A DNA stretch of 63,985 bases, filler included, from Psammoneis japonica (lineage: Eukaryota): assembly GCA_008632985.1 (NCBI GenBank). It is 3 parts of 3 records of this genome, joined end to end, with 100 filler letters (N's around TTAATTAATTAA, not from the genome) between each part and the next. Parts side by side here need not be neighbours in the genome. Positions count along the whole stretch, not along the records: positions 1 to 27,620 come from QPGO01000410.1; positions 27,721 to 55,223 come from QPGO01000412.1; positions 55,324 to 63,985 come from QPGO01000539.1. One strand, 5' to 3'. The notes under the pieces are model-generated. The model saw only the letters and a list, made by a program, of their open reading frames with translations, did not search any database and was not told the DNA's origin. Made by a program: the position numbers and the translations under genes. Below, in pieces: positions 8,125-57,720 of this stretch. Position 1 is the stretch's first letter. Each line of letters opens with the position of its first letter.

Positions 8125-9890
8125 TGCAAAAACAGGCACACATTTCTTTTTTAAAAAAAGCACAGATTTGCAGTAAGCAGTGAGCACCCACGTAGAAACG
8201 CTCGTAGAAATCTGTGACGCTCCACAAAATTTTGAGGGACATCCACGACTAAATCGGCATTTTCGCCCCAAATCTCACAGCACCCATCACACCCACTAGC
8301 AGCATCTGAGATTCATTCATACGATGACGACGCCTGTACGTGCAGCACCCGACCTCCTCTTGTCCCATGAGGAGAAAGATCAATGTATTTGTAGCTGGGG
8401 TCTAAAGTGCCGTGAGATGCAAGAGAGTTTTCGTGCTCGAGCCGAAGCGGGCGAAGACGAACCTCGTGCTGGGCGATGTGTGCGTCTGCGACTTGGAGGC
8501 AAGTCGGAGAAAGCAGAGAAATGGAGAGAAGCAGTGTTGGTGAACCTTGGAATATCTTGTGATGCAATTGACAACTTGGGTCAGGTTCCTGTTGCAAGGC
8601 ATCACTGGACCGTCAATCAGCTGCGTTCTTTTGACGGCGGCAAGAAACCATCTGCACCCCTGCCCTCGGCGAAGATGACAACTCTCACGGAAGTGGTCGA
8701 CCATCAGCACTTTATGAAGAAGGGATCTGATAAGTCACATTTTCACTGTCCCAACGTGCCAATGAATTCATTGTTGATGGAGACGAGGAAGTCGCCACAC
8801 AGCGTGCGCAGCCAAACATTTGACGAGCACAAGGCGTTTGCGAAGCTGAAGGGACACCAAGATAGATTCAACCAACTCACTCTTGGTAATTATATAAATG
8901 ATGGAGAAGCATTGCATGACAAAGAGAATGAGCCTCCAAAGGACATGGAATTGGAAGTGATTAAAGAGAGAGCCGAGGATGCGCAACAGCAGTCATCACG
9001 CCTCAAACAATGCAACCGGATGAGCGCGTGTGGGAAGCGTAAATCGGACGTATCAACTGCCGGTGTAGCTGAGCCTTTGTATGATGGCTGTGATGTTGAA
9101 GAATTTGCTGCAGATTTTCTTGATTCAAATTCTGCTTCTCGTTGTCAACTTGCATCGCCCAAATGGCACGCAAACAATCCAACAGCTTGCAAGGACATGT
9201 TCGGGTTTCATGCTTTGGAGGAGATGAAACAGCACATCTCCTGCTTTTTTGTTGATGTGCCACTTCTTGTGTCTGAAATCTATTTTGATGGAGATGACAG
9301 AAAGCTTGAGTGCAGTCCTGCCGATCCAACGGAATTTGAACAGCTGCTGATTGTGAAGCACTTCATGCAGCATTGCCCGGTGCATAAGATCACTGGCACT
9401 GCTTTTGGCATGTCACGATTTGCAGTGAAGAGACACATTGAAAAATGGGCACCACGGTGGGCCAAGCATGGAGAATTTCTTTCGATTCTCCCGATGCCAC
9501 GTGATTGCTTTGACAAGGAAATGCCGGACGAGTTTGCTGAAATGCTTCTTGACTCGGTGGCTTTTCTTTTTGATGGAAAAGACACTCCCACAGAAACAAA
9601 GCGCAAAGACTTTGTGGCATGTTTTATGAAGCCACACCGATGTGTCAATCCCAATTCTTTTTCCACTGGCCTCAGCAAATGGTGCAGACTGTGCCTTGTT
9701 GACATGGGTTGCTGATTCCCATCGTCGAGGTGTCGAGGGTGTCGTGGAATGATGTGCAAAAGTGCAGCGTCGAGCATCGAAAACAAGTTTCAGCAGTGGA
9801 TGTCCCTCAAAATTTTTTCGTGCATCACATCTGCGCCAGCACTGGTGCTCACTGCTTGTGGTTCGGCTGAAACTGGCGTTTGTTTTTGCC
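8125..9890 (+). mobile_element. Degenerate, internally deleted PIF/Harbinger- or ISL2EU-like DNA transposon
   Basis: ORF 8324-9715 has a THAP-like N-terminus (CICSWGLKC...ARHHW), an HTH-like region and FLFDGKDTPTE resembling the first Asp motif of DDE_Tnp_4, then truncates. Imperfect inverted repeats flank it (aagcagtgagcacc and aaattttgagggacatccac at ~8175-8247 vs reverse complements at ~9796-9857). Confidence 0.5.
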
Positions 9891-9899
9891 GGAATTTTT

Positions 9900-12410
9900 T
9901 TGGCGCGGTCGGTCCAGGCAGGTCCGGCCGGCGCGGTCCAGATTTTCCGTTCAGAACAGATGCCAAAACTGAATGTGATTCAAAAATCGAGACAGATGCA
10001 AGGGCACATGCACTTGCCATGTGCCCAGACAGAGCACTGTCGCTTTGCTCGTCAGTCCTCTTGTGGTGATCTGGCCATTCTGGCAGCAAATGGTGGCATC
10101 TGTTGGACTGGGCAGGTTTTGCTGGCTGCCGAATCGAAAAATTTGCGACATCGCAAAATTTGCAACAAATTCCAAATCCCCGCACAGTCATCACGCGGCG
10201 AGTCAAGAAATGACCCTTGTCACCCTCCAAGATCGTCTTTGCGATGCGGCCAACATCCTCTGGTGCAATTCAAGGTGCAGGCATTCTTTCTGCTTCGATT
10301 AAGAAAAGACATGATGCACGAGAAATGACAAGAAATCCTCATTTTCAAAGGAAATTGCCTTCTCGTGACAGCAACTCATGCCGACGCATCGCAAGATTTC
10401 AACAAAAATGACCTTTTTGGATGATTGCACCTCCTTTCCTCACAAACAAAACGTCACACAGCTCTTCACAATGATGACAATCTGATTGGTTTGTCATTTC
10501 ATGTCACTTGCAGACCTGCGGTTGTCGAAACAGTGGCACCCGCTCATTTGAAGCAAAAAATGAAGCACTCAGAGACCTCGCACGTGCTTTCATCGTGAAA
10601 AAATTCGAGCTGTTTGTTTTTGTAAATTAATTTGCGATTTGCAAATTTTGCGTTTCAGTGGCTGGCACAAGTGCTGACCCCAACCCCGTTCCCAACAAGC
10701 TGGAGCTGCCTGCACAGCCTGCACAGCCGCCAGAGGGTGGGAGAGAGGTCGTGGGAGCGGCTGAGTGTGTCCACTGGACTTGCTGCTGAGCTCTTCAGAA
10801 GAATGAGTGAAGGCAGCCAATGAACAAAAAAAACAAATGGTTGCCTGTGATGTGGTGCGCTCACCAGCACTCACCCTCTGCACACTTGATTTTCACAACC
10901 CGCCACTGCACTTGGGCTGCTGGAGCTGCTTTTTTAGCAAAAATTCCTGCTGCCAAACAACACGAGTGCTCCAGTTTGATGGCAGTTGGCTTGCCCTGAT
11001 CAGTGCACACCCACACAACAACACATGACAAGCATTGGGGGGGCTTGGATGTGGTGCAGTTCTTGAGTCACCCTGATCCTTGAAACCAGAACAAAGTGGG
11101 CTGACGTTGCATTTCAATGGACAGGCACTGAGTGCATTCATGACAGGCAGTCTTGGAGCTGGCACAAGCCATGTTTATCTTTTCACACTTTGCACCCGGC
11201 TTGGTGGCATTGGCGCAGTCAATGGTGGAGCTGGCAGGTTGCTGAACCTGGCTTTTTGTCAGCCTCTGGGCGGCAGCCACACAGAGGCTCAATCTGCACC
11301 AAAAATTTCATCAAACTCATCACCACCCTTGTCATTGGTGGACTCAACAATCCACCCTGGAAGGAAATTGCAGCCTGCATCTAAAACTTGTCATTGTCAA
11401 TGTCATCTTGACAAGTCAGTTGATCTTGACAAGTTGGCTGATGGTGGTGCTCCATGCCAAGTTCGTGGGTCATCACACAACTGACCTTGGAACAATGGGG
11501 GGGCATCTTGGAAGTGAGAAAGACACAAACACAAAGAGGACAACATGGAGCTTGCACTCCCTCCTCTCATGTGCAACATGCATCCTGCTGAGCTGTTGTT
11601 GCGCCAGTGTGCCAGCGAAATGAACGCTGCCACCCCCCGCCACCCCAGTTGCCACCTGCACTGTGCTGCACACTAACCTGCCACTGCTGCTGGTGCAGCC
11701 TCTGCCACTGCTGCCACATCTGCCGCCTGCCCCACAACTGCTGCTGCTGTGGTCCACACCACAACATTGGCAACCACTGTCACCACAGCCAGTGCCCAGT
11801 GCCGACGCCAGCTCTTCCACCACTGCTGCTGTGGCCCACACCACCTCTCAGCTGGCAGCTGCTGCCACTGCAGGTTTTTGCCACCACTGCTGTGGCTTGT
11901 GCCACCAAACTCCATCATTGCTGCCACAGCCACTGCTGATGCTGCCACTGCAGGCTGCATCGCCACCACTGTGGCCTCCACAAACTCAGCTGCCATGGCC
12001 ATGACTGCCAATGCCACCATGGCCTCCTGGTGGGTGCAACATGTCACCCCACTGGTGCTGTGGCCAGTGCCAATGCTGCTGTCATCATGACCTCCAGAAC
12101 AAAAAATGCTGGTGCCACTGACACCACCGCCACTGCCACCGACAGCACTGCCTGCACAATTTTGAAATTGAAAGTGCTCCTGTCACCACCACCATCACAA
12201 CAAATGCTGCCGCCAACTCCTCCAGCATCAAATTCTCTGCTTTTGCCATGAAAGCTGGTGCTGTCAGCACCTCTGCCACCATCGCACCCCCTCTGCACAA
12301 GCATCTCTGCCCACGCCATCAATCCCACCACCACAGCCACTGCTGGTGTCACTGTGCTCAAGCCGGACAAAGACCTTGACACAACCTTGGAGAGATCCAT
12401 TTTGAACATG
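9900..12410. repeat. Heavily decayed repeat/TE relic, TG/CA-rich, with low-complexity (CCA/CTG)n tract at ~11600-12350
   Basis: TpA is almost absent and CpG is strongly reduced. Many overlapping Cys/His-rich ORFs, none with a recognisable domain. Confidence 0.5.
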
Positions 12411-12821
12411 GTAATTATGACAGCGAAGGCAGCTCATGGACGAGCTTATCCGATTGGTCTTTACACAAGGTTCATCAAAAACAAGCAGCAAATCGAAATC
12501 ATTTCTCATCTCTCTCTCTCTCACTCTAGCGACAGAAAATGCAAAATAGAACGAAAATGCCAAATGCCAGCAAATAGTGTTTTGCAGCGATATGAAAACT
12601 AATCAGGAAATGAATAACTAGCTCCTTCACAGGCAGTTTGCGTCAACAATTTGCTCTTCATCTGGCAGGGCGCGCTTCCGGTCCCTGGCAGACTTGCAAG
12701 CCCACCGCGAAATCTGTCGTTTGTGCGGGGGCAACTCGATACCTAACAATTCGGATGAGTGAACTCCACTTTTCCTAGAGGACAACATTGATTCACCCAG
12801 CTGAAGCACCTTTGATTCATC

Positions 12822-14429
12822 TTAAACACTTTTCTCTCGTGAATGATCGGTAGCCTCGGTGCTATCAGAGACTGAAGAGTCCGTATGACTCTCTCCACCC
12901 AAAGAGCTATCATCACTACTACACGTCTCCCCGTCACAGTCACCATGATCAACACTTCTCTGATGCTGTTTCACCATGTGTTCGACTTCGATCAAGTTGA
13001 GCCCCAGTGTCTCCTTGCGCACGCACAATCCATCTTGAGCAACCAGCGCTGTGTCAAGGTCGTTTGCAGCTCTCGCAAGTCTCTCATCGGTGACGTCTCG
13101 TTGAGTCCATGCCAGATACGGGTCAATATAGAGACGATTCCCAAGATAGTGACATTCACTTTTGTCCAGAATAGCTCGGATATGTAGCAGGCTCCGTACT
13201 ACACAGCGGCGTCCGTTGGTAACAATACGAACCACCTGATACCAGCAGTGAATGGCGAGTTCGAAGTTTCGCAAGTATGGATAGATGAGTGCTCGCCTCA
13301 CGGAATCAGATACAATGGTTTGAACCTTGTCAATTCTGGTAGAGCCATAATCTTCCAACCAACTAAGACTCGAGCTCAATGTGCAAATTGTCCATGAAGA
13401 TTCGATAGTCGGATCTCCATCTGTTGTCAAGTGGTCGTACACGTAGGCAAACAAGATATCGAACAAACCCATAAACAGGTACTTCTCCTGTTCGGCAGTG
13501 ATGTCCCCCGGTAAGAGTGGATATGGAATAGATGCCAACTGAAGGGTTTCATCAGGAGTGAAGTATGTTGAGGTCGTTTTGGTTTCGGACCTGCTCCGGT
13601 CGTTCGTCGTGAGTTCCGACATGCTCAAGGCTAGCGACTCTAGATTGGTGCCCTGATGGTCCTTGTGTCTTTGCTCTTCCTGTCGCTTCTGGTGTTCAAC
13701 ATTCCAGTGTGGCTGCATAGCCATGGCACACTGATATATGTAATCATCTGCCAGATCAAGATCGCCCAGGTACCGGTCGGCGTCAAATTTTTCCTGTTCG
13801 GTTTGTAGTCGCAGAGTTCTACGGTCAGCTGCGTCGGTCTCATCTGGGCACTTCAATTCGAGCATTTCAGCCGCCAGACCTTCTCGAGCCAAGTCAACAA
13901 ACACACCAACATGCTGGTTGAGGAAACCGTAATGAGGTTTAAGAACATCTGTGAGGCTCGGCAAACTTTCTGTCGTTGACGTTGCTTCGTTTCGTTGCAA
14001 TTCCGACATTGCTTCATTTTTGTTCTCACCGTCGTCTGCCGCTAAAGACGACGATGACAAGACCGAGATGATTTTTGTAGTTCGTCCACCATTTGCTGCC
14101 ACTCCTCGTTTTGGCTGCCTAGGTGTCATGAGATTTGCCATCATATCAAGGTCCGGCCAGTGAGCCGCTTCTGCCTTCTTTAGTCGCAGAGAGATTGTCC
14201 CTCCGTTGCGGGAAGGATCGTACGTGGCACATTCGGCCTCGTCTTGTTGAACCAACGCAGCCGGAAAGGACAAAACCAAGAGATAGGGCGGACTGGAGAA
14301 ATGCAGCACCGAATCATCCACCACAACTACTTCCACAGACTTTACGGAGACACGAACGTGTGGTACGCTAATGTCCACAACAACCTCTGATAGGGACTGA
14401 GAGAGAGCAAAACGGGGAGTCACGGGCAT
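12822..14429 (-). CDS. SHQ1: H/ACA snoRNP assembly factor SHQ1
   Basis: 535-aa ORF with N-terminal CS domain (TPRFALSQ...ISVPHVRV...FSSPPYLLVLSFP), the YGF motif, EKFDADRYLGD, and the SHQ1 domain (DILFAYVYD...ESSWTICTLS...RRALIYPYLRNF). Normal TpA content. Confidence 0.92.
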   Translation of the reverse strand: MPVTPRFALSQSLSEVVVDISVPHVRVSVKSVEVVVVDDSVLHFSSPPYLLVLSFPAALVQQDEAECATYDPSRNGGTISLRLKKAEAAHWPDLDMMANLMTPRQPKRGVAANGGRTTKIISVLSSSSLAADDGENKNEAMSELQRNEATSTTESLPSLTDVLKPHYGFLNQHVGVFVDLAREGLAAEMLELKCPDETDAADRRTLRLQTEQEKFDADRYLGDLDLADDYIYQCAMAMQPHWNVEHQKRQEEQRHKDHQGTNLESLALSMSELTTNDRSRSETKTTSTYFTPDETLQLASIPYPLLPGDITAEQEKYLFMGLFDILFAYVYDHLTTDGDPTIESSWTICTLSSSLSWLEDYGSTRIDKVQTIVSDSVRRALIYPYLRNFELAIHCWYQVVRIVTNGRRCVVRSLLHIRAILDKSECHYLGNRLYIDPYLAWTQRDVTDERLARAANDLDTALVAQDGLCVRKETLGLNLIEVEHMVKQHQRSVDHGDCDGETCSSDDSSLGGESHTDSSVSDSTEATDHSREKSV

Positions 14430-15280
14430 TCTTCCTCTATGATCCTACTTTCGATCGAGAGGATTGAGGGATCAAGAGAGCGAATGAGAAATCCCAGTCC
14501 TTTTGAGAAGGAAAATCGGGGCTTGTTGTTGCTTGTTGCTCGCTTACTGTACTTGGTTGGGGAAACTTATTGTTGCCACAAAATTGAAAATTGAAAATGG
14601 GTGGAGAGACCGCGCACGATACGCGACAGGGAAGGAATTTTGGTGTGGGTGTGCGCGCGAGGTGCGCCATCGTGCGTCGGCGGTGCTGCGCACTGTGCGA
14701 TCGGAGCTCCACCATCACCCCACTTTCATCATCCATCATTGATCATGATGTTGAGACTTCGATTCTGTGATTCTGTCTGATCGATGTCCGCACTGATGAG
14801 TTGCGAGATTTCGGCCATTTGTTTTGACACTGCCAATTGATGAATGATGAGCTCAAACTTTGTGGCGGCAGTGCTTTCTTTTGAAGGAGATTGTGTGGAT
14901 GAGTTCTTGCACTCAAAGCAAAACATGGGGCTGTGCAAAGTGCACGGCTTTTGCCAGCTTTCAAGCATTTGGTTATCACTGAAAAGAGCCATGTGCAAGG
15001 GCACCATTTTCAAAATGTTGTGTGGCCATCTTGAAAAAGAGTCGCTCTTTGCTTCTGACAATGAGCGTGGCACCCCAGTGGACCCAAGGACCTTGTGGCA
15101 AAAAAGATTTGGGGCATGTTTTGCAGCCTGCATGTTTCACAAAGAACACTGCCAAACTGAGCTTGTGCCAATGAGAGTTGGGCTCAAGCAGTCAACTTTG
15201 AAACAGCGGAACTCTGGCAGCAGATCATGAGCGCCACCTTGAAACCCCAACCCAGTGCAAGCATGTCCCTGGGGGGGGGG

Positions 15281-15661
15281 TGCAGTGTGCATTGTTGTGT
15301 GCGTTGCACACATGCACAGCTGCATATAAAATGAATTTATGTTCCAATCGTACGTCAATCGTGGGTTCGTACGAGGACAGATCAATCACACAGAGTTGAT
15401 CGGATGTCGAGAATCGCGAATGCGACTGTGCGATGATGTTGACATCTCATGTGTCAATGTCAATCGTATCCGGACAATCTGTTGTCACGATTGCATTCTC
15501 CGAAAGGCCTTTTGTCTGTGGGAGCAGTGCAAAAGGTTTGGGCTGTTGAGAACCCGTTCAGAAAAACCCAAAATGATCATGCAGAAATGATTCTCACAAT
15601 TTTCACTTTTTGAACTTTGCTCTACTTTCATTGTTTGCACTCGTTCTTCAAGCATGGTGCA
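15281..15661 (+). repeat. Ty3/Gypsy 5' LTR (copy 1)
   Basis: TG...CA termini; homologous to 21707-22087 and 24917-25293. Confidence 0.85.
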
Positions 15662-15697
15662 TTGTGTGTGCACACCACAGAAGGCAACTAGTTCAAG

Positions 15698-16786
15698 ATG
15701 AAGCTTTCACCTCAGGTGGCCAAGGCCAAGACTTCGTTGAGGCAGGAAAGAATTGTTCCTCAACCGTTGGAATCGAATTCCGAGCCGAAGAGCCTCAAAC
15801 CGAGCCAGCATCTCAAGATGGAGCAGTGTTTTCATCCCGAGAAGAAGGACAGTCGGACCCACACGATCAACGTCGAGTGCTGCAAGAAACAGGGTGTTCC
15901 CAAGTGCATCGAATTTTTAAAGAGCTGTGATCAACTTCCAGTGGGCCAGAACATCAGCAAGCAAGCCGACAAGTTCCGTCTCATGCGCACGTTGCCACAA
16001 GGAGACGCTCTACGTGCTTTCGAGAATGCAGCGGCAAACATTGAAGACGAATCTATGGAAGGAAGCTTCAAGAAATGCCTGCAGCACCTCACGAAACACG
16101 TGTTTCCTAAGAATGCACTTTCGGTTCAGAAACGTCATCTGCGTCGCGATCTCAAGAAGCCCGAGTCAATGAAAGTGTGCGAGATTGCTGCTTGGGTCCA
16201 GGAAGTCAACGAAGACCTCAAGTTCTATCCTCCCTTTGGAAAGGATCAGAAGATCAAGGAGGACAAGCTCAAGAACATCCTCTTCAATCTTGCACCTCGA
16301 AAGTGGCAGCGCCAGTCAACCGTCCAGGGTTTCGAAATTTTGAAACATGCCTGCGACGAGTTGGTTGAGTTTTTGGAGCACCTGGAGGTCGCTGAGGATG
16401 TGTTCGACGGCATTCATGCCAAGGCTGATCCCAGCGGCAGTGCTGGATCGAAAGCCAAGAGTGGTTCCCAACGTGGTTCCAAAAATGGTCACCAACATGG
16501 TGCCAAGAAATCTCAGTCCGACAAGTGGTGCATTCCATGCGAAAAATCCACTCACAACACGGACAAGTGCTGGTCGATTAAAAGACTTGCAAAAGAACGC
16601 CATGGGAACTATGAACCCGACCCAAAATGGCGCCGTTCAAATGGCAATCGCACATGGTCTCGTCGTGACAACAACAACGCCACTCGCAAAGAAGAGTTGA
16701 ATGCCATGGCAGTCCAAGCAGTTCAAAAAATTGCTCAAAGCGAGTTCTTCGAACAACGACAACAAGCGCAAGAGCAAAGATTGTGA
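15698..16786 (+). pseudogene. Gypsy gag (copy 1), TpA-mutated
   Basis: Downstream of the LTR; zinc knuckle CIPCEKSTHNTDKC (CX2CX4HX4C); Tyr nearly absent with apparent Cys/His replacement. Confidence 0.8.
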
Positions 16787-17025
16787 CTCTGATGCCCTTG
16801 ATGAGGAGAATTGTCAGTTTGAAAAAATGATGTGCAGCAATTCTGAGGAATGACTTGCACCGCAAGAGGAGTCTTGCGCACTGCTGGACATCAGGAAGCC
16901 CGGAAAAAGGGCCAAGATGACTCACGCTAGTCCAGTTGTCGCAGCTTGTGTGAGCACCTCTGTTTTCAGGGTTGTCCAATGTGCTGACAGCCTTTGGCGT
17001 AACAGCAATCTGTTGAGAGTTGCCT

Positions 17026-17078
17026 GACATACAAAGCTCGATGATGTGAGCTTTCGCTTTCGCTTCATCAGTGTTGTC
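17026..17078 (-). ncRNA. Minimal type I hammerhead ribozyme (3' pLTR)
   Basis: Minus strand reads GACAACA-CUGAUGA-A-GC-GAAA-GC-GAAA-GCUC-acaucauc-GAGC-UU-UGUAUGUC. The catalytic core and stems I, II and III can all be drawn. Confidence 0.8.
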
Positions 17079-17484
17079 GGCTGTTTTTCGAGCTAAAAAA
17101 TTCGAAATCGGCATTTTTCTACGGCTGTCGTCGCAGCTGACGTTACAGGCGTTGAAAAAGCCGCATCAGAAAGATCCACCCGTGCGCGGTGCGCATGGTG
17201 AGTTAATCGTGTGGATCACAGATCTCGAATGCGCGCGAAGCGCGCATGAGAATGAGTGAGGCATCATCAACTCAAAAAACTCCAACGGTGTTGGAGAAAG
17301 AGCGAGTTGATGTTGCTGCTGTCAGATGTAGAAGCATGCTCTACTGCAGCAAGTGCGCAAGTGAACAAACTCAAAATGTAAAACAAAAAAACTCAAAACG
17401 GGCATAAGCCGTAGCGCCGTGGCACGGTGGGCAGCCCGTTTGAGTTTTTTACCGGAGGTGACTCGTCGCGACGGAGTCGCCTAA

Positions 17485-19410
17485 TCAGAGCTCCGGTGTG
17501 TCAGAGAGTTTTTTAATGACATCTGAAGCATGCTGCCCATTGGGTTCCTTTGGTGGTGTTCGTGTGAGGGCGTCTCTTAGATTTTTGGGTCTTGAGCACG
17601 CCACTGCTAACCGGTTGAACCCGCTGTGCCCTTCGCAGGTTTTTTCACACGCTCTTCTTATTTCAGTGCGAGCTGTCCCGCGTGGGTGACACTCTTGGTG
17701 AAAGAAAAGAGTGTTGGATGGGTCAGCGACATTGGAGCGTGGGGCCTTTTTCCGGTGGACAGTGGCGGCTGCATCCACAAAGAGGTTCTTGAGGCACTCT
17801 CTGTTGTGGCCTCGCGCTGTCAGCCGGTTGAAGAGCTGGGCCACTGTTTTTTGGCAATCCTTGTTGTTTGGATTTTGTGCCCGATGCGTCCGAAGGTTTC
17901 CATGCACAACACTTCTCAGTGCTCCAGGTGGATGTGCTGAGCTTGGGGGCATGCAGAGGTGCAGGTTCATGGCCTTCTGGTACGTTCTTGTTTCAACACA
18001 CCGGTTTGCTCCAATCTTGACATCGAGATCCAGAAATGCAACTTGGTCACTGAGCTCGGAGGTTTCCCATTCCAAGGTGCCGAAGTCATTCAGTTCATGT
18101 TTGAACTTCTCCCATGTTTCACCTTCACCGCCTGTCCACACGCCGAGCATGTCATCTGTGAATCGTCCACAACAGGGCAGGTTCAAGTTGAATCGGGTTA
18201 GCACACTTTGGCGTTCGTGGAGAGCCTTGTACATGGTGGCGTACATGCAGGCTGTGCTGGTTCCCATGGCTGTACCATCGATTTGGAGCCAGCAGGTGTC
18301 GTCAAACTGGATGACATTTCTTGTCATGACGATTTCCAGTGTGGTGAGGAAGAAGTCAACTGGGAAGTTTTTTGGCATCTCATCGGGGTGCTCAAGGAAC
18401 CACCGGTGGAATGTTTCCAGAGCATGGTTGGTGTTGACATTGGCATGCATTCCTGCTGCATCGACTGTGAATGGCTTAGCATCTGGTGGCAGCTTTCCAA
18501 GTGATCGTAAGTCGGCGAGGACTTGGTGAGAGTCTCGGATGTACGTTCGCGATGGGGGTGGAAGTTCTTTCATTTTGAAATCTGACCATTTTGAAAACAC
18601 TTCATTTTCACTGTTGATGCAGCTCACTGTTGGTCGTGTCGTCCACGGTTTTTTGTGGACTTTCGGAGTGATGCAGAACTGTGGCATGCGGTGTTTCTTT
18701 TTGAAACTTCTTTCGAAGTAAGTTTTTTCCGCTTCAGAGAGGCTNNNNNNNNNNNNNNNNNNNNNNNNNNNNNNNNNNNNNNNNNNNNNNNNNNNNNNNN
18801 NNNNNNNNNNNNNNNNNNNNNNNNNNNNNNNNNNNNNNNNNNNNNNNNNNNNNNNNNNNNNNNNNNNNNNNNNNNNNNCTTCGCGCTCCATGATGGCTGG
18901 ACCAAGATTCTTGTCCGTAAGGCACACGACGAATCGTCTGTCATTTTGCAATGTTCGCAGCGTTCGACACTGCTGAGGCGTCAAATTAAAGCGGGGTCGT
19001 TGGCGGTTGGCTGTTCGACTGGCTCTGTCTGTCTTGTTTGCGAAGTCCATCATTCGAAGTTCTATTGTCCCGTCTTCAATCGGTGGAGGGTCGAAATCAG
19101 AGGGGACGTGTGGGTGTGGGTTGCACCCGTCTTCGTCGTTTACGAGTTCGGAGTTCTCGATAAAGTTCCGTAGACGTATGGTTCGTCGGAAGCGTTGTAC
19201 GCCTCGGCGGTTGTGTGGGAACGGGGTGCTTGATTCTATACAAAACTTGTGTCCAAGTCCTAACAGTAATCCAGTACCCGGGGGTGGTTGCAGCTTTGTA
19301 CAGAGGTCATGGTAAGACATGTTGTCCAGGCGGTTGAAGCATGCCGTAGCTTTCATCTTGCCGATAGCCGTTGCTACGTTTTCCCACAGGGGGGCATCAG
19401 GATTTGGCAT
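17485..19410 (-). pseudogene. Penelope-type reverse transcriptase (TpA-mutated; N gap 18745-18878)
   Basis: TDKNLG, PKVHKKPW...RP, QIDGTAMG, RFTDD, FLDL, TYQKAMNLHL..PSSAHP (PLE thumb). The frame stays open upstream of the ATG and overlaps the end of ORF1 in the -1 frame. Confidence 0.88.
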
Positions 19411-48264: not shown

Positions 48265-49050
48265 CTTGTTGCTGCATCTCTGCATCTTCTGACAATTGTG
48301 CAGCAACGGACGAGTGGGACTGCCAGTCCGTCGCCCAGCAACATTCCGCCAATCGGTTTTCAACAACAAGACCTGGAGAACTGGCTGGGGCACCCTCGTT
48401 GTGTTGTGCAGTTTGACGAAAAAAGGCGCGGCTGATCTTGGTTGCGTTGATGGACGGCGCAAGCGCATTCTGCGTGTTGACATTGGCAACAACATGTTCT
48501 CCCCAGCTGCATGTCGGCGGCTTTGCTCTTGTCTGTGTCTGTCTCGCTGCTGCATCTCTGCGTCTTTTGACAATTGCACAGCAACGGACGAGTGGGACTG
48601 CCAGTCCGTCACCCAGTGACATTCCGCTGATCGGTTTTCAATGACAAGACCTCGAGAACTGGCTGGGGCACCCTCGTTGTGTTGTGCAGTTTGACGAAAA
48701 AAGGCGCGGCTGATCTTGGTTGCGTTGACAGACGGCGCAAGCGCATTCTGCTTGTTGACATTGGCAACAATGTGTTCTCCCCAGCTGCACATTGGCGGCT
48801 TTTGCTCTCGTCTGTGTCTGTCTCGCTGCTGCGTCTCTGCGTCTTCTGACAATTGCACAGCAACGGACGAGTGGGACTGCCAGTCCATCGCCCAGTGACA
48901 TTCCGCCAATCGGTTTTCAACAATGAGACCTGGAGAGCTGGCTGGGGCACCCTCGTTGTGTTGTGCAGTTTGACGAAAAAAAGGCGCGGTTGTTCTCGGT
49001 TTCGTTGATGGACGGCGCAAGTGCATCTGCTTGTTGACATTGGTGATGAC
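48265..49050. repeat. Three ~278-bp tandem units
   Basis: gcaacggacgagtgggactgccagtcc at 48303, 48581, 48860. Confidence 0.9.
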
Positions 49051-49112
49051 ACATTCTCCCAAGTCACACATCGGCGGCTCTGCTTCGTCGTTGTTGTCTC
49101 GTTGCCATTGGC

Positions 49113-50522
49113 TTGGAATGTCGGTCGACAATGGAATGGATGCTCTTGCCGATGCGGCTGTTCTTGCATCGCAAGAACAGGACGAGGAAAGCCGGTCGTC
49201 ACAGGAGGAGAGCAACCAGAATCACGGGGGGGGGGGGAAATGATGTTTCACAGCAGGAAGAGGAAGATGTGGATTCCACAACAAGGGACAATGATGTTTC
49301 ACAGGAGAAGGAAGATGTGGATTCTACCCCAAGATCACCCAAATCCAACGCGGGTGACATTGAAAACATTCCCACCAAGCTCAGGGATTTCGTGACTCTC
49401 GTCAACGGTGACATGGCAAAGCAGGTGTGGGAAAACGTCTTTCGCCATGTTGGTTTGTACGATGTTGTTGACCCAAGCACAGAAACAAAATCACTGTGTA
49501 AATTGGCCAACTCTGGGCTCCGGCAAAATTCCGGGAAAAGGCACGTTTTGGTGCATCACAACCAGAAGGGATTGTCACCTGACATCTGCAAACTTCTCAG
49601 TGAATTTGAACAAGAAAACGAAGGCGACATCGTCGACTTGTTGAGCAACAAACACACCCACATTTTGGCAGTTTGCGCAGTTGACGGCGATCGTTGTGTC
49701 ATCGCGACCGATCTCGTGGCGGTGTTGTTGTGTCGGTGCATTCAAAAAGTGCCAGTCACAATTGTTGACTGCATTCGAGTCGACAAGAACGCCCAGGTCC
49801 ACAATTGTGGGATGTGCCCTTTCCTCATCGGCGTGGCTCAATCTGTCGGCTGCACAGTTGTTGGCACATGGGACACGATGCTGCATTGTCAAGTGAAGCT
49901 CAAGCAATGCCACTGTGAAACTCTGGGTTTCGAGGATGTCACAGATGAAATGAACGAGGAACCGTCTTTGGAAAGAGTGAGGCACCATTGGAATTGGGAG
50001 GATTTGATCAAAGAGGACGGAGAGAACACCCATGCACTCATGGTGAAACGCAAAGTCACCACATGCTCTGCAAGAATTGCGCTGCCCATCTCGCACACAG
50101 AGGATGCTTTTCAACACAATGCAAAATGGTGGCGGGACCGTGATGGGTTCTGGAGCAGCAACAAGGAACCATCAGAGCTGCACAGAGATTTGGTGGAAAA
50201 AGAGAAAGACGTGATTTGCAAATCCTCGGCAGTGATGGTTGGCAGGACGACACTGGACTCTTTCAAACACTCATGGGAAATGTTCATGGATGGTCGACAA
50301 TGGCTTGACATTGGGAGGTGCGTTTGCGAATCCTGCGAAATTTGCATTGGTGGAGTCGACAAGGCCAACAACATCAAGTCACATTTCGAGACAACGGCTT
50401 TGTTTGCAGCAAGCGTCCACTTCTCCTGTCGAACAAGTGAGTTGGCAAACGATGAAACATGGGATGGAGCGACGTGTCGATCAAGCGATTCGGAGTTGGC
50501 CCAAAGGGCCAAATGTGTGTGA
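49113..50522 (+). pseudogene. GNAT-acetyltransferase-like ORF
   Basis: TIVDCIRV...NCGMCPFLI...QCHCETLGF; reading C/H back to Y gives IVDYIRV and YYETLGF, resembling GNAT motifs A/B. Confidence 0.5.
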
Positions 50523-51575
50523 GGCCTTTTTGACTCGACCAAGGAGTCGGTTGCTGACAACCGGAAGTGTGTTCTCAACCCCAAGCATTGCCAGCGCAGT
50601 CGGAGCAATTCGGATGAAGACATGGAGAATGAAATGCCTTTGGGTGGCGACGGACCTCCCTGTCAGCATCTTTCAGCAATGTGCTTGAAGTGCAACACCT
50701 GCGACTTGTCCGTGCACATCGATTGCAACCAGGAAAGTCAACGAGGCCTTTCTCCAGCAGCAACTTTGTTTTCTGAGCTTGCAGGCCCTTGCTGCGACCA
50801 TGCAATGTGCGCTCGGGGCAAGCACCCCATTTGCGCTGCACAAAACAGAAGTGCAGTGCATGAGTTGCTGGTTGGTGCAGCACAAGAAGACAGAGAAACT
50901 CTGAAGGACCCAGAGAGACGCCGTGCTGCTTTGAACAAAAAGGATTTCTTTCAGCAGCCTTTGCAGCACATTGCCATTTGGTGCAAAGAAGCGGAAAAGC
51001 TGCGCTGGTGCAAGACAAACAGGTCAATTTGACAACACCGTTTCACACAGCTGGCCAAGGAGGCAGTGCTCCACCGAAAACTCTCTGCCAGTGGAAACAA
51101 GAGAAAAAAGAAGAAACCGAAACCCAAACAGGTGGATGGCGGCCTGGAGGTGGAAGAGTCTGATTCGGAGCCGGAAGATCAAGGTCTCCTCGTTTCACGA
51201 CGAAGAGTGTTGTCTGCTGTCGATGAGAAACACCAAGATCTTCATTTTGAAGCGAGGAAGTTGTGCGAGGATGCAAAAGACTTGGGACAGATGCGTCATC
51301 TTGAATGGGTTGATCCGGCGTCACGGCCGGATCACAGTGAGACACCAGGTGATGCCGTCCAGTGCGAAGGGCGAGTTTCATTTGGATGGTTTGAAGTTCT
51401 CAAACACGGCAGAACATTGGCTGACGATTGTTTTGGAGCGGACAATGACAAGATCATCGGAGGAGGGAGGGTGAACCTTGTTCGAAACGCCGTTGAGGAA
51501 GCCAAGCGGAGACCCAACACAAAAGTCTCTCTGAGCTGCAGAGAAAAGTGACAGATTGGCAACAGAGCTGATCAC

Positions 51576-52436
51576 GTGACAAACAAAGGTCATGTTCACA
51601 AAGTGAGGCGGCTGACAGATGGGGAGCGAGCCAAGGGGCTTGCAGCCAATGATGATTTTGAAGGTCCTGCGGGAACGCCAGAATTCATGGGGGTTGGCAC
51701 AAGGAACAAACCCCGCCATTGTGCCATGGAATGGGCAAGAGCCAATTTTCAGAAGCGATGTCCTGCAGTGTGCAAGGCCATGTGTGATTTGAAACCAGGC
51801 AAAGCATGGCGCAACCTGCCGGAGGGCAACGTGTCAGACAAAAGCGAGCTGGAATTTCCTGCATCGGGGCCACGAGTCAAACATCAACAAGGCGAGAAAG
51901 ACGCTTGTGTGCTCTCTAGCCTGGCCAGTGTCCTCAGTTGCATGGGAGACGAAAGGATGGAGCAACATGTTGTGAAGTGCAAGGAGCATTTTTGCAGGTT
52001 GGAGATCACCAACAACAAATGGCTGGAGTTCGCTGTCGGCATGTTGTTGGGGCAAAAGCAGAAAATGTGCCCTCCAACGGCCACATCAATGAAGTGGCAT
52101 GAATGCAAGAGGCGTCAGAAGATGGCAGCTGGCAAGAATGGATTCTTTGATTTGACCACACACATTGCAGATGACGTCGTTCTTTGTCGGTTGAAAAACA
52201 ACCATTGCACTGCTTTGCACAGTGGGTGGATCTTCGACTCCAATCATGAATTCACTCTTCCTGCCAAAGACATTCAGTGGTTGAATTGGTGTCTTGGGAA
52301 TGAAACGTTTGAAATGGGTGCACTGGTGGAAGACCCAAAACCAGCAGCGGAGGAAGCAGTGTTTTTCCAACTGCCGAAGGCTGTCCAAACAAGGTTGCGC
52401 AAACGCAAGAGGCCAGCTGATGTGTCTGCATTTTAG
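51576..52436 (+). pseudogene. Papain-fold cysteine peptidase-like domain (possibly the C-terminus of a long gene starting near 49113)
   Basis: QQGEKDACVLSSLASVL (Q..C), NNHCTAL (H), WIFDSN (D/N). Confidence 0.55.
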
Positions 52437-52489
52437 CTCTAAAAAGGGACGCTGGTGCGTTCATGCTTTTTTGTGGTTGGGGTCATGCG

Positions 52490-53612
52490 CTGGTCCGAAC
52501 ATGAGATTTCTAGAAAAAGAGTGAAGTGAGCCCCTGATTGTGTGAACCCAACCCACAAGTGCTGGCAGATGGCCTTGGCTGTCTCCTGTGGATGGCAGAG
52601 GACACTTTGACGACAAAGGTTGAGCACCAAAAGGCCCATCTTGTGCAGTTGAGGCCCCACCTCACTTTGTTTCCGCCAGGTTTGGACATGAAATTTCTAG
52701 AGTTAGAGCAAAACGAGCCCATGATTGGGTGAGCCCAGCCCAAAGGTGCCGGCAGATGGCCTTGGCTGTCTCCAGTGCGTGCCAAGGGACGCTTTGACAA
52801 CCAAGGTTGAGCACCACAAAGCCAATCTCGTGCAGTGACAGCCCACTTCAATTTGTTTTCACCAGGGCGGCTTGTGAAATTTCCAGATTCAGGTGAAATG
52901 AGCCCCTGATTTGGTGAACCCAACCCATGGCTGCTGGCAGATGACCATGGCTGTCTTTTGTGGGTGCCAGAGGACACTTTGACAACCAAGGTTGAGCGCA
53001 ACAAGGCCCATCTTGCGCAGTTGAGGCCCCACTTCACTTTGTTTCCACCAGGGCCAGACATGAGATTTCTAGAAAAAGAGTTGGATGAGCCCCTGATTGG
53101 GTGAACCCAACCCACAAGTGCCAGCAGAGGGCCTTGGCTGTCTCCAGTGGGTGCCAGGGGACACTTTGGGAGCCAAGGTTGAGTGTGACAAGGCCCTTCT
53201 TGTGCAGTTGAGGCCCCACTTCACTTTGTTTCCACCAGGGCCAGCAATGAGATTTCTAGAAAATGAGTGAAGTGAGCCCCTGATTGGGCGACCCCAACCC
53301 ACAAGTGCAGGCAGAGGGCCATGGCTGTCTCCAGTGGGTGCCAGGGGACACTTTGACAGCCAAGGATGATCGCAACAAGGCCCATCTTGTGCAGTTGAGG
53401 CACCACTTCACTTTGTTTCCACCAGGTTTGGACATGAAATTTCTAGAGTTAGAGTGAAATGAGCCCATGATTGGGTGAACCCAACCCGCAAGTGCAGGCA
53501 GAGGGCACTGGTTGTCTCCAGTGGGAGCCAGAGCACACTTTGACAACAAAGGTTGGGCACAACAAGGCCCGTCTTGTGCAGTTTCAGGCCCTGCTTCCCT
53601 TTGTTTCCGCCA
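52490..53612. repeat. Subtelomeric satellite, six ~187-bp units
   Basis: atga(g/a)atttctaga...gagccc at ~52501, 52688, 52875 (diverged), 53060, 53248, 53434. Confidence 0.92.
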
Positions 53613-53688
53613 GGGTCAGGGTTGGGGTCAGGGTTGGGGTTGGGGTTGGGGTTGGGGTTGGGGTCAGGGCCAGGGTTGGGGTTGGGGT
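53611..53688 (+). repeat. Degenerate internal telomeric tract
   Basis: Hexamers TTGGGG, TCAGGG, CCAGGG; no intact TTAGGG. Confidence 0.85.
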
Positions 53689-54016
53689 CGGTGTGCCGCA
53701 TCGTGGCATTCGAACTCGGATGCGAAACTCTGGCTCGCATGTTGCTGTTGAAAGGATGGAGTCACTCGAGGCAGGATGGTGGGAAACCTTGCAAGTTGGA
53801 GTGCAGAAGAGCACCCGCGATCGAACAAATGACATCGGTGGATTTTTCTGAATCAGAGACAGCAACAAACATGATGGCGAAGGTGCCCCTCTTGTTTGTT
53901 GTGTTGAACGATCCCAATCTGTTGGATCCCAGCTCCAGCGAGCCCTTGGTGAACCACGTTCAACCCCAAAGCTTTGCCAATGAGTTGATGAAATTTCTTC
54001 AACTCCCACACCTTGG

Positions 54017-54096
54017 TCAGGGTTGGGGTTGGGGTTGGGGCCAGGGTCAGGGTCAGGGTTGGGGCTGGGGTTGGGGTTCAGGGTTGGGGGTTGGGG
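54017..54096 (+). repeat. Second degenerate internal telomeric tract
   Basis: Hexamers TCAGGG, TTGGGG, CCAGGG, CTGGGG. Confidence 0.85.
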
Positions 54097-54658
54097 TGAC
54101 AGAAAATGAAGGCAAATGGCAAGAATTCAAACAACAACTCCTTGCTGCTGTCTAAACAGCAGATGAGTCTCCGCTCAGAGACCGCTGCAGGAGCCGAAAG
54201 ACGTGCAAGTCGGTGTGATCGGGCTGCTGTTGTTGTTCTTGTGAGCCTTGTGGCTCGAAAGCAAACCACATCGCACGTGAACGCGCGGAACTGGAGCACA
54301 CAAAACTGTGCGCGGCAAACTAAACAGCGCGCGACACTTCGCGCGCATCCAAATCCTGTTCAAATCCTGTCACTCCCCAGTTTGCTTGAGGAGCCACAGA
54401 AACAGATTCGACTTCGGATGGAATGAAGTTCCAGAACATGAGGGGGCGGAGAAGGTCCCAGATTTGGGAGTAACCCCAATGCTTGCTGAGAATGTCAGCA
54501 GGGTTGCGGGAGCCTTCGATGAAGTGGAGCTCAAGGCAACCAGAGGCAATTGCCTCACGCACACGGTGGAACGACAGTGCGGTGTGTCGCTTGTGTAACT
54601 TGGAGTGCGGGATGGTGGCACTGTCTACAACCGACTTGTTGTCACCGAACATGTAACT
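54097..54658 (-). mobile_element. 3' end of Ty1/Copia element: RNase H C-terminus, PPT and 276-bp 3' LTR (54097-54372), truncated by the telomere
   Basis: FGDNKSV...KRH...FHRVRE...NPADILSK (Copia RNase H); PPT ggggag; LTR with inverted termini TGACAG...CTGTCA. Confidence 0.88.
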
Positions 54659-54659
54659 N

Positions 54660-55223
54660 GTTAGGGTTAGGGTTAGGTTAGGGTTAGGGTTAGGGTTAGG
54701 GTTAGGTTAGGGTTAGGGTTAGGGTTAGGGTAGGGTTAGGGTTAGGGTTAGGGTTAGGGTTAGGGTTAGGTTAGGGTTAGGGTTAGGGTTAGGGTTAGGG
54801 TAGGGTTAGGGTTAGGGTTAGGTTAGGGTTAGGGTTAGGGTTAGGGTTAGGGTTAGGGTTAGGGTAGGGTTAGGGTTAGGGTTAGGGTTAGGGTTAGGGT
54901 TAGGGTTAGGGGTTAGGTTAGGGTTAGGGTTAGGGTTAGGTTAGGGTTAGGGTTAGGGTTAGGGTTAGGGTTAGGGTTAGGGTTAGGTTAGGGTTAGGGT
55001 TAGGTTAGGGTTAGGGTTAGGGTTAGGGTTAGGTTAGGGTTAGGGTTAGGGTTAGGGTTAGGGTTAGGGTTAGGGTTAGGGTTAGGTTAGTTAGGGTTAG
55101 GGTTAGGGTTAGGGTTAGGGTTAGGGTTAGGGTTAGGGTTAGGGTTAGGTTAGGGTTAGGGTTAGGGTTAGGGTTAGGGTTAGGGTTAGGGTTAGGGTTA
55201 GGGTTAGGGTTAGGTTAGGTTAG
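54660..55223 (+). repeat. Telomeric (TTAGGG)n array
   Basis: ~560 bp of TTAGGG with occasional 5-mer variants, ending at the contig linker. Confidence 0.98.
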
Positions 55224-55323
55224 NNNNNNNNNNNNNNNNNNNNNNNNNNNNNNNNNNNNNNNNNNNNTTAATTAATTAANNNNNNNNNNNNNNNNNNNNN
55301 NNNNNNNNNNNNNNNNNNNNNNN
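55224..55323. other. Artificial contig linker
   Basis: N-TTAATTAATTAA-N. Confidence 0.93.
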
Positions 55324-57720
55324 AACAGTCGCATGCTGCAGAAAATTCAACGCCCCAAAAATGAACCATGAACACCTTCCATTGTGAGCTTGATCTGCTG
55401 CACAAGAAGGTTGTTTCTTTCAAGATGCACATCTTTGGCTTTTTTCTCTCTCCCTGCTCTGTCTGTTTGTGTGCTGGCTCATCTCTTCTGTGCAATGCTC
55501 TGTTGTGTGTGTGTGCTCTCCTTTTGCCAGAAAAAAATGTGGCTGTGGGATGTGTGCTGCCACTTGCTTTGAATCATGTCTGCAAGTGCGTGCCATTCTT
55601 TCGCTGAAGTGCAGCATCCTGTTGGGCAAATTCAAATTGTTGTTGACACAAGTGCCCATCAACATGATCATGGCAGAGTCTGTTTTTCTCTGCGCTCTTG
55701 ATCACAGCATTGTGTGTGCCAAAGAAATGAAAACAAACAACAAGTGTCTGTGCCAAAGAAATGAAAACAAACAACAAATCTTCTTTGGCTCTCTTGATCT
55801 CAGTGTGCAAAGCTCTTGTTGGTTGAATTGCCGCTCAAAGTGTTGTCATCAATTGACAAGAGCTGGCACTCTTCAACATGGGTGTTTTTTCCTCTTGTGT
55901 GTCATGGCAAGCTCACCCCAAAGGGGTGGCTCAAGCAAAAGCTGCACTCAGCAACCACAGTGTTTTCTGCTAAAATCAACAGAGCTGCAGCCAAATCTGA
56001 TGCTGGGTGATCTGGCACAAATGTCAATTGTGTGGTGGTGCCTGAGGCCAATGACTGATGCCTCAAAAAACACATTTTGGGTCTCTTTGCATGTGTGCAA
56101 AATGTGTTTTTGACAACAACAATTGCTCTCTTTTTGTTGCAAACCTCCTCACAATGCATCATTGACAAATCTGCCACACCCACTCTCCCAGTTTCCGGTT
56201 TCCAGTGTTGCCCCATTTAAAATTGAGGCATTGCCCCAGACAAAAAATCAGCACTGCACAAGCACCAGATCACCCCAGCTGCTTTGTTGCCTGTTTCCTG
56301 TCACTGTTGTTGTGCGCCATTGTCATCATTGCTTGCAAAGTGAGTCACTTCGCCAGCTGCTTTGTGGCACCACACAAGAAGTTTTGCGCATCATCTGCAA
56401 GCTCTGCAAAATGACGTGGTCTTTCTGGGGCCTGCTGGAAATTTTGGTCACATGCATTGAAAAGGTCAACATGAGCAGCAAGCCACAAGAGCAGGACCTG
56501 GGTGCATTGTTGTGCTGTTTCTGAACTCTGAACATTTTTCTTTGGTTGTGCATTTTCCTCATGGCACCATTTTTGGAGATGCTTCCACACATTTCTGTGC
56601 ACAGCCAGCTGTTTTTGAATTAGACAGCCAACCAAGCAGCTGGCAACCACCCAAACAACCACAAAGTTTTCACTGCCACAAGCCTGGAATGCCTGGCACA
56701 TGACACTGGTGCTCCTCAACTCTGAAGCACAACCCCCTGGGTTGGCCAGCGCTCCTCAGCTCTGAAGCACCGCCTCCTGGGTTGGCTGCTGAGCTGGTCA
56801 AAGTCAAGAGATTAGAGCACAAAAGCAAAGCTGCCTCAAGGAGCAAGTGCACATGTGCTGGTCATCTGAGCACACTTGCTTGCACCATGAAAAAGCAAAA
56901 AGGCTGCTGAGTTCAGGAAAAGTGCACAGTTTCTCAGCAGTGTTGAGGTCACTCAGAGTCTCTCTTCATTTCAGACCTCCTGGCTGTGCTGCTTGCCTGC
57001 ATTTGCAGCAGCAGCAATGCCAAAAGACCCTCTGTCTCAGCTGCCAGCATTGGCTGCAGCCCATTAATCAGACCATGATGTGCTGCCTCCAGAGCCAGTG
57101 AAAGACTGTCTCTTTGGCACATCTGCCCCCCTGGCAAGACATTGGCGTGCGCTGCGCTTTGAGCGCAGCTGATTGTGAAAATTTGAGCCGAGAGAGAGAG
57201 AAGAGCAGTGTGCCTCATTTCTTTGAGGGGCTGTCTGATTTGTCTCTCTTCTGCTGCAGGCTTAATTTTCAACATGCACGGCAACAAATGGCGGCACTGC
57301 ACCCCTGCCAGGGCATGCAGCAACAGCGTGGCGCGACAGCCCCACATGGGAGAGAAAAGCCTCCACAGGGTTTGCAGTCACCAGCTCAACAATCAACTTG
57401 CAGAAGAATGGGTTTTCTTTCACAACAACTGCCCTTGTTTTTTTTTTCTGACAAGAGACAAAAGAGGTCACCTGCCGCCACAAAAGTCCCTTGTTTTGGC
57501 AAAAAAAGCTGCTGCAGTGCCCAGAAGCCGGTGCTGGAGAGAGCCCCTCCTCCATTTGACAACAACATCATGTGTGCAGTGCAGTGATGCAGGACAACCT
57601 TGACAATCATGAACGAGACCAGTTTTCTCATCAATGGGGAGAAACACTGGGCAGTTTCAATGCGATTGCCCGCCACTTTGACGTGAGCAACTTTCGACGA
57701 CTGGGGGTGTGACGAAAAAA
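55324..57720. repeat. Extremely decayed TE relic (TpA- and CpG-poor)
   Basis: TG/CA-saturated; no recognisable protein. Confidence 0.5.

Follow-up and report, generated by a model that had tools for sequence, protein, structure and literature searches.

We report that, in a window of 63,985 nucleotides from assembly GCA_008632985.1 of Psammoneis japonica (three contigs joined end to end, all of which were analysed), DNA derived from transposons and from subtelomeres has lost nearly all of its TpA dinucleotides. The most probable explanation, to which we assign a probability of about 80%, is TpA-specific A:T->G:C hypermutation of this chromosomal DNA, carried near to saturation; each TpA would become TpG or CpA, depending on the strand that is struck. 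By analogy, the process is probably of the same kind as the TpA-only hypermutation described in the alga Bigelowiella natans. It is a second case, far more saturated and in another lineage, and not a first description. The spacers between contigs (27621-27720 and 55224-55323) are artificial, of the form N44-TTAATTAATTAA-N44, and the TA that they contain has to be excluded from dinucleotide counts.

TpA depletion in transposon-derived and subtelomeric DNA

In the window, the depleted DNA (about 43.3 kb) has a roughly sixfold lower density of TpA than the host DNA (about 17.7 kb): it occupies 264 of 43,270 positions in the former and 628 of 17,684 in the latter (Fisher p = 5e-146), corresponding to symmetrised frequencies of 0.0061 and 0.0355. 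The symmetrised rho of depleted versus host DNA is 0.10 versus 0.54 for TA, 1.48 versus 1.15 for TG/CA and 0.74 versus 0.95 for CG, and GC content is 51.3% versus 48.9%, a difference of +2.4 points. The loss of TA+CG amounts to 401 per 10 kb and the gain of TG+CA to 438 per 10 kb, and these totals balance; across contexts, loss and gain are weakly correlated (r = 0.20), and from that comparison only the totals and the extremes, GTAC and TTAA, were relied upon.

Along the window, TpA counted per kb has an observed/expected (O/E) ratio of 0.00-0.29 in most of 9-12.4, 14.7-24.4, 25.2-54.0 and 55.3-57.7 kb, against 0.30-0.80 in host-gene DNA, and fully depleted blocks hold 2.5-9.3 TA/kb against 35.9 TA/kb in host DNA. 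The longest run free of TA reaches 2,418 bp (49499-51917) in depleted DNA and 232 bp in host DNA. An earlier note on this DNA had described repeat and subtelomeric DNA as nearly free of TpA and host DNA as not so, and these counts agree with it.

The edges of the depletion are sharp and lie within a few hundred bp of host genes. Block 1 begins at about 9.1 kb; around the host gene SHQ1, which has depleted DNA on both sides, TA is back at 12412 and gone after 14620; on contig 3 the final sparse TA is at 57263 and TA is dense from 57724. The spans given in the earlier note were correctly placed at their edges, while its stretch from 14.7 to 54.1 kb is not uniform, as it includes a TA-rich part (24441-25160) and a half-depleted one (16960-21323), and the terminal telomere array beyond it is untouched. 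That note had also counted 27.7-54 kb within its transposable-element and subtelomeric DNA: the depletion there stands, and a transposable-element label for the whole block would be an interpretation, given the near absence of Pfam matches beyond Helicase_C.

The coding potential of the depleted DNA is altered. On both strands together, the stop triplets TAA and TAG number 344 and TGA 1,745 and, because TAA and TAG are almost absent, this DNA is rich in long open reading frames (ORFs) in all frames. Six long depleted ORFs contain 0.1-0.5% Tyr and 2.9-6.9% Cys, versus 2.1-3.3% and 1.6-2.1%, respectively, in four host ORFs. When 42 + 148 stop-to-stop ORFs of the window were searched against Pfam, depleted DNA gave only rve, Helicase_C and a weak DUF1758, and no deaminase domain was found in any window ORF. 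Weak matches to Barwin, IGFL, PARP, KRTAP and others fell below the cut-off and were judged to be due to chance.

Direction of the change

Comparison with homologous proteins polarises the difference. The integrase core encoded by the Ty3/gypsy-like pol remnant spans a boundary between TA-poor and TA-intact DNA, and it was aligned with 60 of 120 listed Ty3/gypsy homologues, mismatches being scored at columns conserved in at least 60% of them. In the TA-poor part, GPYK reads GPHK, SRYPWP reads SGCPWP and DYGIK reads DCGIK; in the TA-intact part, conserved Tyr residues are retained in STYHTT, YxVG and PYxGPY. Single-step changes from TpA to TpG (7) or to CpA (3) account for 10 of the 31 mismatches in the TA-poor part and for 1 of the 28 in the TA-intact part (Fisher p = 0.006).

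The same holds in unrelated elements. At ten conserved Tyr positions of the Penelope-like reverse transcriptase (RT) there are 3 Tyr, 4 Cys, 2 His and 1 Lys, and 18 of its 44 mismatches are of the TpA type, 9 on each strand; the helicase-like ORF of the subtelomeric block has Cys at three Tyr positions that are conserved among its relatives. The peptides from which the earlier note had argued are present, SGCPWP, AHDRGSEF and EDCGIK at 24291-24389 (+) and CCGRFTDD at 18151-18174 (-), and its claim that Tyr is read as Cys or His in unrelated elements is borne out against the integrase, Penelope-like RT and helicase homologues.

A second line of evidence comes from three aligned copies of a long terminal repeat (LTR), with the copy in the TA-intact patch as reference. 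The 25 TpA sites of the reference read, in its two sisters, TG/TG (10), CA/CA (8), TA/TA (4), TA/TG (2) and TA/CA (1); none reads CG, and only transitions are found at them. Reciprocally, all seven TpA of the sister LTR at 15 kb are also TpA in the TA-intact copy. The TA-intact patch would represent the ancestral state, to judge from these alignments. The direction of the change is, on this sequence comparison, demonstrably from TA to TG or CA, and the change is restricted to TpA. The polarity of the LTRs and of the protein columns upholds the earlier proposal of T:A->C:G change at TpA, a change that strikes both strands of DNA from transposons and subtelomeres and spares the genes next to it; outgroup and paralogue comparisons likewise support its statement that the polarity is opposite to that of fungal repeat-induced point mutation (RIP).

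Conversion in place, on both strands and over time

The two strands are struck about equally: on the sense strand, A>G and T>C changes stand at 7:3 in the integrase, 9:9 in the Penelope-like RT and 10:8 in the LTR. Moreover, copies of the same repeat often differ by adjacent doubles, one reading TG where the other reads CA, as expected if they were duplicated while still TpA and then converted separately. Eight such doubles distinguish the D9/D10 copies, which are spaced 1.5 kb apart, 7 and 9 are found between adjacent 278-bp tandem units (D5), and 3 between the two gypsy copies. Others separate the window from further genomic copies present in sequencing run X1 (17499/17500, 17520/17521 and 17597/17598); this comparison covered 40 of 390 variant rows. 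Conversion took place after duplication and in place, and tandem repeats, the telomere-like tract and dispersed copies changed independently.

The derived state is common to both gypsy copies at 18 of 18 LTR sites, and three further TpA distinguish them; therefore, a mutated copy was duplicated and the process continued afterwards. The nested Penelope-like element, which is necessarily younger than the gypsy copy that hosts it, is less depleted: it holds 16 TA/kb where host DNA has 36 and the other blocks 3-9, so that it is about half depleted. The process is ongoing or recent.

The true telomere has been spared. A genuine (TTAGGG)n array with its TpA intact closes contig 2, and an interstitial tract of telomere-like units further inward retains no TpA (Table 1).

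Sequence context and CpG decay

Survival of TpA relative to host DNA depends on the flanking bases. It is 0.87 in TTAA and 0.43 in CTAA/TTAG, it falls to 0.15-0.20 in CTAG, ATAA/TTAT, GTAA/TTAC and CTAC/GTAG, and it is 0.02-0.05 in ATAG/CTAT, GTAC, ATAT and ATAC/GTAT. The largest loss is that of GTAC and the largest gain that of GTGC+GCAC, while TTAA shows neither. This suggests an extended preference for RTAY on both strands, with TTAA spared. Other A/T dinucleotides do not follow TpA: ApA/TpT has a rho of 1.31 in depleted DNA versus 1.13 in host DNA, and ApT is also retained.

CpG O/E is 0.12-0.30 in 11001-12000, 52001-54000 and 55324-57000, and about 0.8 in other TA-poor DNA; single differences between CG and TG or CA are common between copies. 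This CpG decay, presumably from 5-methylcytosine, is a second and separate process that is strong in some blocks only and cannot remove TpA.

Read evidence and copy number

Reads from one public sample (run X1) were available as 31-mer contigs with a word depth of 28-51 on single-copy DNA; runs X2 (12 of 30 bins, low depth) and X3 (no coverage) were excluded from the evidence. The X1 contigs are identical to the window at 9334-10154, 10592-12418 and 25264-25854, that is over 3.2 kb of TA-poor DNA, with no other letters. The word depth over the first two of these stretches is 31-34, against 28-51 for host pieces. Some depleted blocks are thus single-copy at a likeness of at least 90%, and they may be old, diverged repeats. 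Present-day repetition is therefore not required, and the term 'repeat-targeted' used in the earlier note is not supported by the three stretches, which stand at single-copy depth in this run.

Within the host region at 12575-14210, the sole X1 contigs at some sites differ from the window; the differences are scattered and include many transversions, and they look like ordinary allelic or strain variation unconnected with the TpA process.

Elements and genes of the window

Coordinates are collected in Table 1. The two Ty3/gypsy-like copies are alike over 1,772 bp (98.5% identity between copy 1 and 21436-23212), and summed read depth is 2,000-5,600 over copy 1. The pol remnant of copy 2 has a protease followed by an integrase, and lacks RT. 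More broadly, the gypsy-like DNA at 21436-25300 has protease-like and integrase parts, has neither RT nor RNase H, and shows a summed depth in the thousands; it appears from its sequence to be an internally deleted, non-autonomous form. Summed depth of this order indicates a very abundant gypsy family with TA-poor and TA-intact members. The pol-remnant ORF has 737 homologues at E<=1e-10. In the high-copy DNA that follows (25161-27620), summed depth is 1,500-12,400, and one contig, at 25264-25854, has single-copy depth. The family of the nested element is taken as Penelope-like because a distant member (P0218) combines RVT_1 with GIY-YIG.

Pfam recognises almost nothing in 27.7-54 kb apart from Helicase_C. 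A full HMMER search with the helicase-like ORF returned 25 representatives at E<=1e-3, of which the best is some 2,000 aa long and carries DEAD as well as Helicase_C; a word-based homologue search with the same ORF found nothing. For the ORF at 27866-30655, viral contigs held no relative and the Atlas gave no match. The block contains tandem arrays at 40577-41425, 48262-49081, 52501-53546 and 35627-35932, with units of 152-167, 278, 187 and 153 bp. A 51-bp sequence occurs twice, at 27866-27916 (where the 930-aa ORF near the beginning of contig 2 starts) and at 53970-54020, just before the telomere-like tract; this recurrence resembles a truncated second copy of a subtelomeric unit of about 26 kb, once capped by a telomere and later internal. 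The Y' elements of yeast are comparable subtelomeric units, telomere-capped and later internal. In the terminal array many units are one base short (TTAGG, TAGGG), and a single N stands just before it at 54659; the short units may be consensus errors of long reads or real variant repeats.

Among the host genes, the light-harvesting ORF matches best the fucoxanthin-chlorophyll proteins (FCP) of diatoms, with E 1e-38 and down, and the clusters nearest to the dihydrouridine synthase (Dus) ORF are mostly from Bacillariophyta and Oomycota. A 471-aa ORF with no Pfam match (8300-9715, +) lies across the left edge of block 1, where TpA thins over about 8.5-9.4 kb; it may be a host gene into which the process has partly reached, or the tail of an old element.

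Table 1. Features of the window, with positions counted along its full length (aa, amino acids; ORF, open reading frame; LTR, long terminal repeat; RT, reverse transcriptase)
Feature	Coordinates	Strand	Description
Three joined contigs	1-27620, 27721-55223, 55324-63985		
TA-depleted block 1	9100-12400	.	3.0 TA/kb; no Pfam match; repeated core near 9963-10616, otherwise mostly single-copy depth
Host gene SHQ1	12822-14444	-	Pfam SHQ1 E 8e-46; Tyr 3.3%; control island of normal TpA
Ty3/gypsy-like copy 1	14650-16959	+	LTR and gag-like ORF (15692-16783); 7.4 TA/kb
Nested Penelope-like element	16960-21323	-	Flanked by 98% direct repeats at 16960-17259 and 20983-21282; 16.1 TA/kb
Penelope-like RT ORF	17488-18744	-	105 homologues
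Ty3/gypsy-like copy 2	21324-24440	+	LTR, gag-like ORF, 5' part of pol remnant; 9.3 TA/kb
Pol-remnant ORF, 536 aa, integrase core	23280-24887	+	Pfam rve E 4.5e-7; spans TA-poor/TA-intact boundary at about 24440
TA-intact patch, 720 bp	24441-25160	+	90 TA/kb; 3' end of integrase ORF and 5' part of 3' LTR
TA-depleted, very high-copy repeat DNA	25161-27620	.	8.9 TA/kb; extends to the end of contig 1
Subtelomeric block, 26.3 kb	27721-54019	.	Most depleted; 4.3 TA/kb; long Tyr-free, Cys/His-rich ORFs; internal tandem repeats
Helicase-like ORF, 759 aa	45392-47668	+	Pfam Helicase_C E 7e-6; Tyr 0.1%, Cys 5.9%
Interstitial telomere-like tract	54020-54100	+	TTAGGG units as TTGGGG (7), T/CCAGGG (5), CTGGGG (1); 0 TpA
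Terminal telomere array	54660-55223	+	79 TTAGGG; 97 TpA, 0 TpG, 0 CpA; unaffected
TA-depleted contig-3 block	55324-57700	.	2.5 TA/kb; CpG O/E 0.12-0.15; adjoins host genes from about 57.72 kb
Host dihydrouridine synthase (Dus)	60101-61372	-	Pfam
Host light-harvesting protein	62792-63382	-	Pfam

Alternative explanations

Several points weigh against TpA-specific hypermutation as we describe it. Differences within the LTR block fall at TpA in 18 of 39 cases, at CpG in 6 and elsewhere in 15, so that TpA is the largest class and not the sole one, with old divergence mixed in. CpG decay too yields TG and CA, and hence some of the TG/CA doubles; discordant doubles from CpG should nevertheless be rare relative to CpG singles, because CpG is only mildly depleted (rho 0.74). 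For the TA-intact patch (720 bp), which lies in an element of very high copy number, chimeric assembly or a tract of gene conversion is a possible origin. The context preference derives from surviving sites and from a comparison between unlike kinds of sequence. X1 may be the assembly's own source, and its platform is unrecorded, which makes its agreement strong evidence and not independent proof. The host would be a diatom or a close ochrophyte only by the similarity of its FCP and Dus sequences. Finally, all the evidence of the window is a historical footprint and gives no rate.

The alternatives differ in what they change, and the best placed of them keeps the TpA-specific outcome at the level of DNA and alters only the chemistry. 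In the chemistry that we prefer, adenine in 5'-TA would be deaminated to hypoxanthine by a deaminase of the TadA/ADAT type acting on DNA, and fixed as G at replication. In the tRNA substrate of these deaminases A34 always follows U33, which would explain the TpA rule. We put this forward tentatively, at somewhat short of even odds, and a modified thymine or error-prone repair are live rivals that take up the remainder. A modified thymine (5-hydroxymethyluracil or similar to base J) would pair with G; alternatively, patch repair like that of Pol eta would strike at WA. Both predict symmetric change of TA to CA or TG in marked chromatin, and the data of the window fit equally well a process that acts first on A or first on T. 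5-Hydroxymethyluracil occurs in dinoflagellates and base J in the telomere repeats of kinetoplastids, and both favour a T that precedes A. The retention and enrichment of ApA/TpT speak against Pol eta, which the earlier note had listed among its candidates and which is thereby disfavoured, and so does the finding that TpA sites are changed by transitions only. In B. natans the changes were exclusively transitions at TpA (bioRxiv 10.64898/2026.01.13.699255), which also counts against other chemistry. Taken together, we regard such alternative chemistry as unlikely, although it is the rival that survives best.

Editing away from the chromosome, by ADAR-like A-to-I change in transposon RNA with a preference for 5'-U, or by deamination of cDNA, the edited copies being inserted afterwards, is improbable. 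Many of the affected sequences are retroelements, and the 18 of 18 LTR states that two copies share indicate duplication of a mutated copy, possibly by retrotransposition. Editing of sense RNA cannot, however, give the nearly equal numbers of A>G and T>C changes. Tandem repeats (152-279 bp), the telomere-like tract and DNA without retroelement features were also converted, and the copies changed independently after duplication; RNA editing followed by reverse transcription is disfavoured because neither tandem units nor a telomere-like tract are retro-copied singly, and because the strands are about equal. To our knowledge, ADARs are found only in animals.

An artefact of sequencing or assembly, in which a modified base at heterochromatic TpA would be miscalled, is very improbable. 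The one-base deletions of the telomere array hint at long reads, and the platform of X1 is, as said, unrecorded. Noisy long reads could not, on the other hand, give 3.2 kb of TA-poor X1 contigs without other letters; contigs at such depth imply accurate reads, in which a modified A or T is not turned into G or C, and this argues against a basecalling artefact. Furthermore, no site became CG, the outcome that independent miscalls of the two strands would give, a single context, GGTTAGGG, yields TCAGGG as well as TTGGGG, and two copies are concordant at 18 of 18 sites.

Equally improbable is that there was no hypermutation, the elements being intrinsically TA-poor through selection or descent from another genome and carrying a RIP-like TA-rich patch, or GC-biased gene conversion having acted near the telomere: the patch does exceed host DNA in TpA (90 versus 36 per kb) and subtelomeres are prone to recombination, yet the integrase ORF is open in its TA-rich part and retains there the Tyr residues conserved in 60 homologues, which its TA-poor part has lost, all seven TpA of the depleted LTR at 15 kb are TpA in the intact copy too, related elements elsewhere have normal TpA, and GC-biased gene conversion is not specific to a dinucleotide and would not retain ApT, ApA and TpT. 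As to such relatives, Penelope-like loci from metagenomes have a TpA rho of 0.56-1.08 in 80 of 80 cases (median 0.78), with the qualification that the search patterns contained Tyr and would have missed mutated copies; the family is thus not intrinsically TA-poor, and these loci are silent on how frequent the process is elsewhere. GC-biased gene conversion, selection against TA and a RIP-like process of reverse polarity were accordingly rejected as contradicted by the integrase Tyr, by the LTRs and by the metagenomic relatives.

Relation to known systems

The closest precedent is that of Mettrop et al. In mutation-accumulation lines of B. natans, the new single-nucleotide mutations of two viral inserts were A>G or T>C in 230 of 231 cases, each of these at TpA; one insert is the integrated region of a giant virus and the other that of a virophage, the rate was about 6e-7 per site per generation, and in some lines the rate of new mutations was raised about 1000-fold (bioRxiv 10.64898/2026.01.13.699255). 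The same source describes 124 clusters of the B. natans genome that are poor in TpA and rich in CpA+TpG, together with coding sequences poor in TpA among which RT and DDE domains are enriched, proposes a regulated genome defence and an ADAT2-like adenine deaminase, and notes the 5'-U preference of ADAR. In a term search of its accessible text, diatoms are unmentioned and the word 'context' is absent. In the full-text literature, subscription-only papers lying outside the scope, TpA-specific hypermutation was met only in this preprint and no diatom report was found; the statement of the earlier note that no description was known is therefore outdated.

The two cases agree in that A:T->G:C change occurs only at TpA and gives TpG or CpA by strand, mobile or foreign DNA is affected while neighbouring host DNA is normal, a single-copy target is possible, and TpA is lost over the long term with a gain of CpA+TpG, RT and transposase domains being among the depleted sequences. 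The two cases differ in host, B. natans being a rhizarian (a chlorarachniophyte) and the host here a diatom-like stramenopile, and in degree, since rho stays near 0.1 here across tens of kb and is 0.45 in the nucleocytoplasmic large DNA virus (NCLDV) insert. The targets are also different: in place of viral inserts, we find retroelements of the LTR and Penelope-like types, the subtelomeric block with its helicase, tandem repeats and a telomere-like tract. A measured rate is available there, and a historical footprint here.

With fungal RIP the present process shares dinucleotide-biased transitions in mobile DNA, the sparing of genes, the possibility of saturation and the independent conversion of duplicated copies. 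RIP changes C:G to T:A, for the most part at CpA, so that TpA and stop codons arise; in contrast, A:T->G:C change here removes TpA, and with it two of the three kinds of stop codon. ADAR, the TAD2/TAD3 enzymes of the fungal sexual stage and TadA/ADAT likewise cause A to be read as G and prefer U or T on the 5' side of the edited base; they are RNA enzymes, whereas both DNA strands of sequences of a non-transcribed type have changed heritably here. APOBEC and AID give C->T, and Pol eta strikes WA motifs, ApA among them, and produces transversions; here ApA escapes and the changes are transitions at TpA. What these have in common with the present process is local deamination or error-prone repair driven by the host, against mobile DNA or for diversification (on APOBEC and LTR elements, see PMC4866542).

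Implications

As a defence, the process would inactivate foreign and mobile DNA and destroy its Tyr codons, leaving proteins rich in Cys and His. On a broader and more conjectural reading, one that we hold with less confidence than the deaminase itself, it would be an old defence of the SAR (stramenopiles, alveolates and Rhizaria) assemblage, present at least in Rhizaria and stramenopiles, carried out by an unrecognised DNA adenine deaminase or its equivalent that prefers RTAY, spares TTAA and acts on double-stranded DNA, guided by chromatin or small RNA and not by repetition, and saturating in diatoms.

For annotation, the affected elements lose their Tyr codons and their TAA and TAG stops, acquire spurious long ORFs in all frames, and are missed by Pfam and by word-based searches. 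Should confirmation across the genome follow, mobile DNA with TpA-specific A:T->G:C hypermutation would be known from a second organism and, for the first time, from a stramenopile, and a curiosity known from one preprint and one species would become a candidate for a widespread defence. A route to the enzyme would also be at hand: some diatoms are genetically tractable, and the saturated footprint offers thousands of sites from which to derive the target rule. Base editing, too, would have a use for a naturally occurring enzyme able to convert A to G in DNA at a defined dinucleotide. If the SAR-wide reading is true, the process would mirror fungal RIP in function and would be an A-to-G editor of DNA that occurs in nature.

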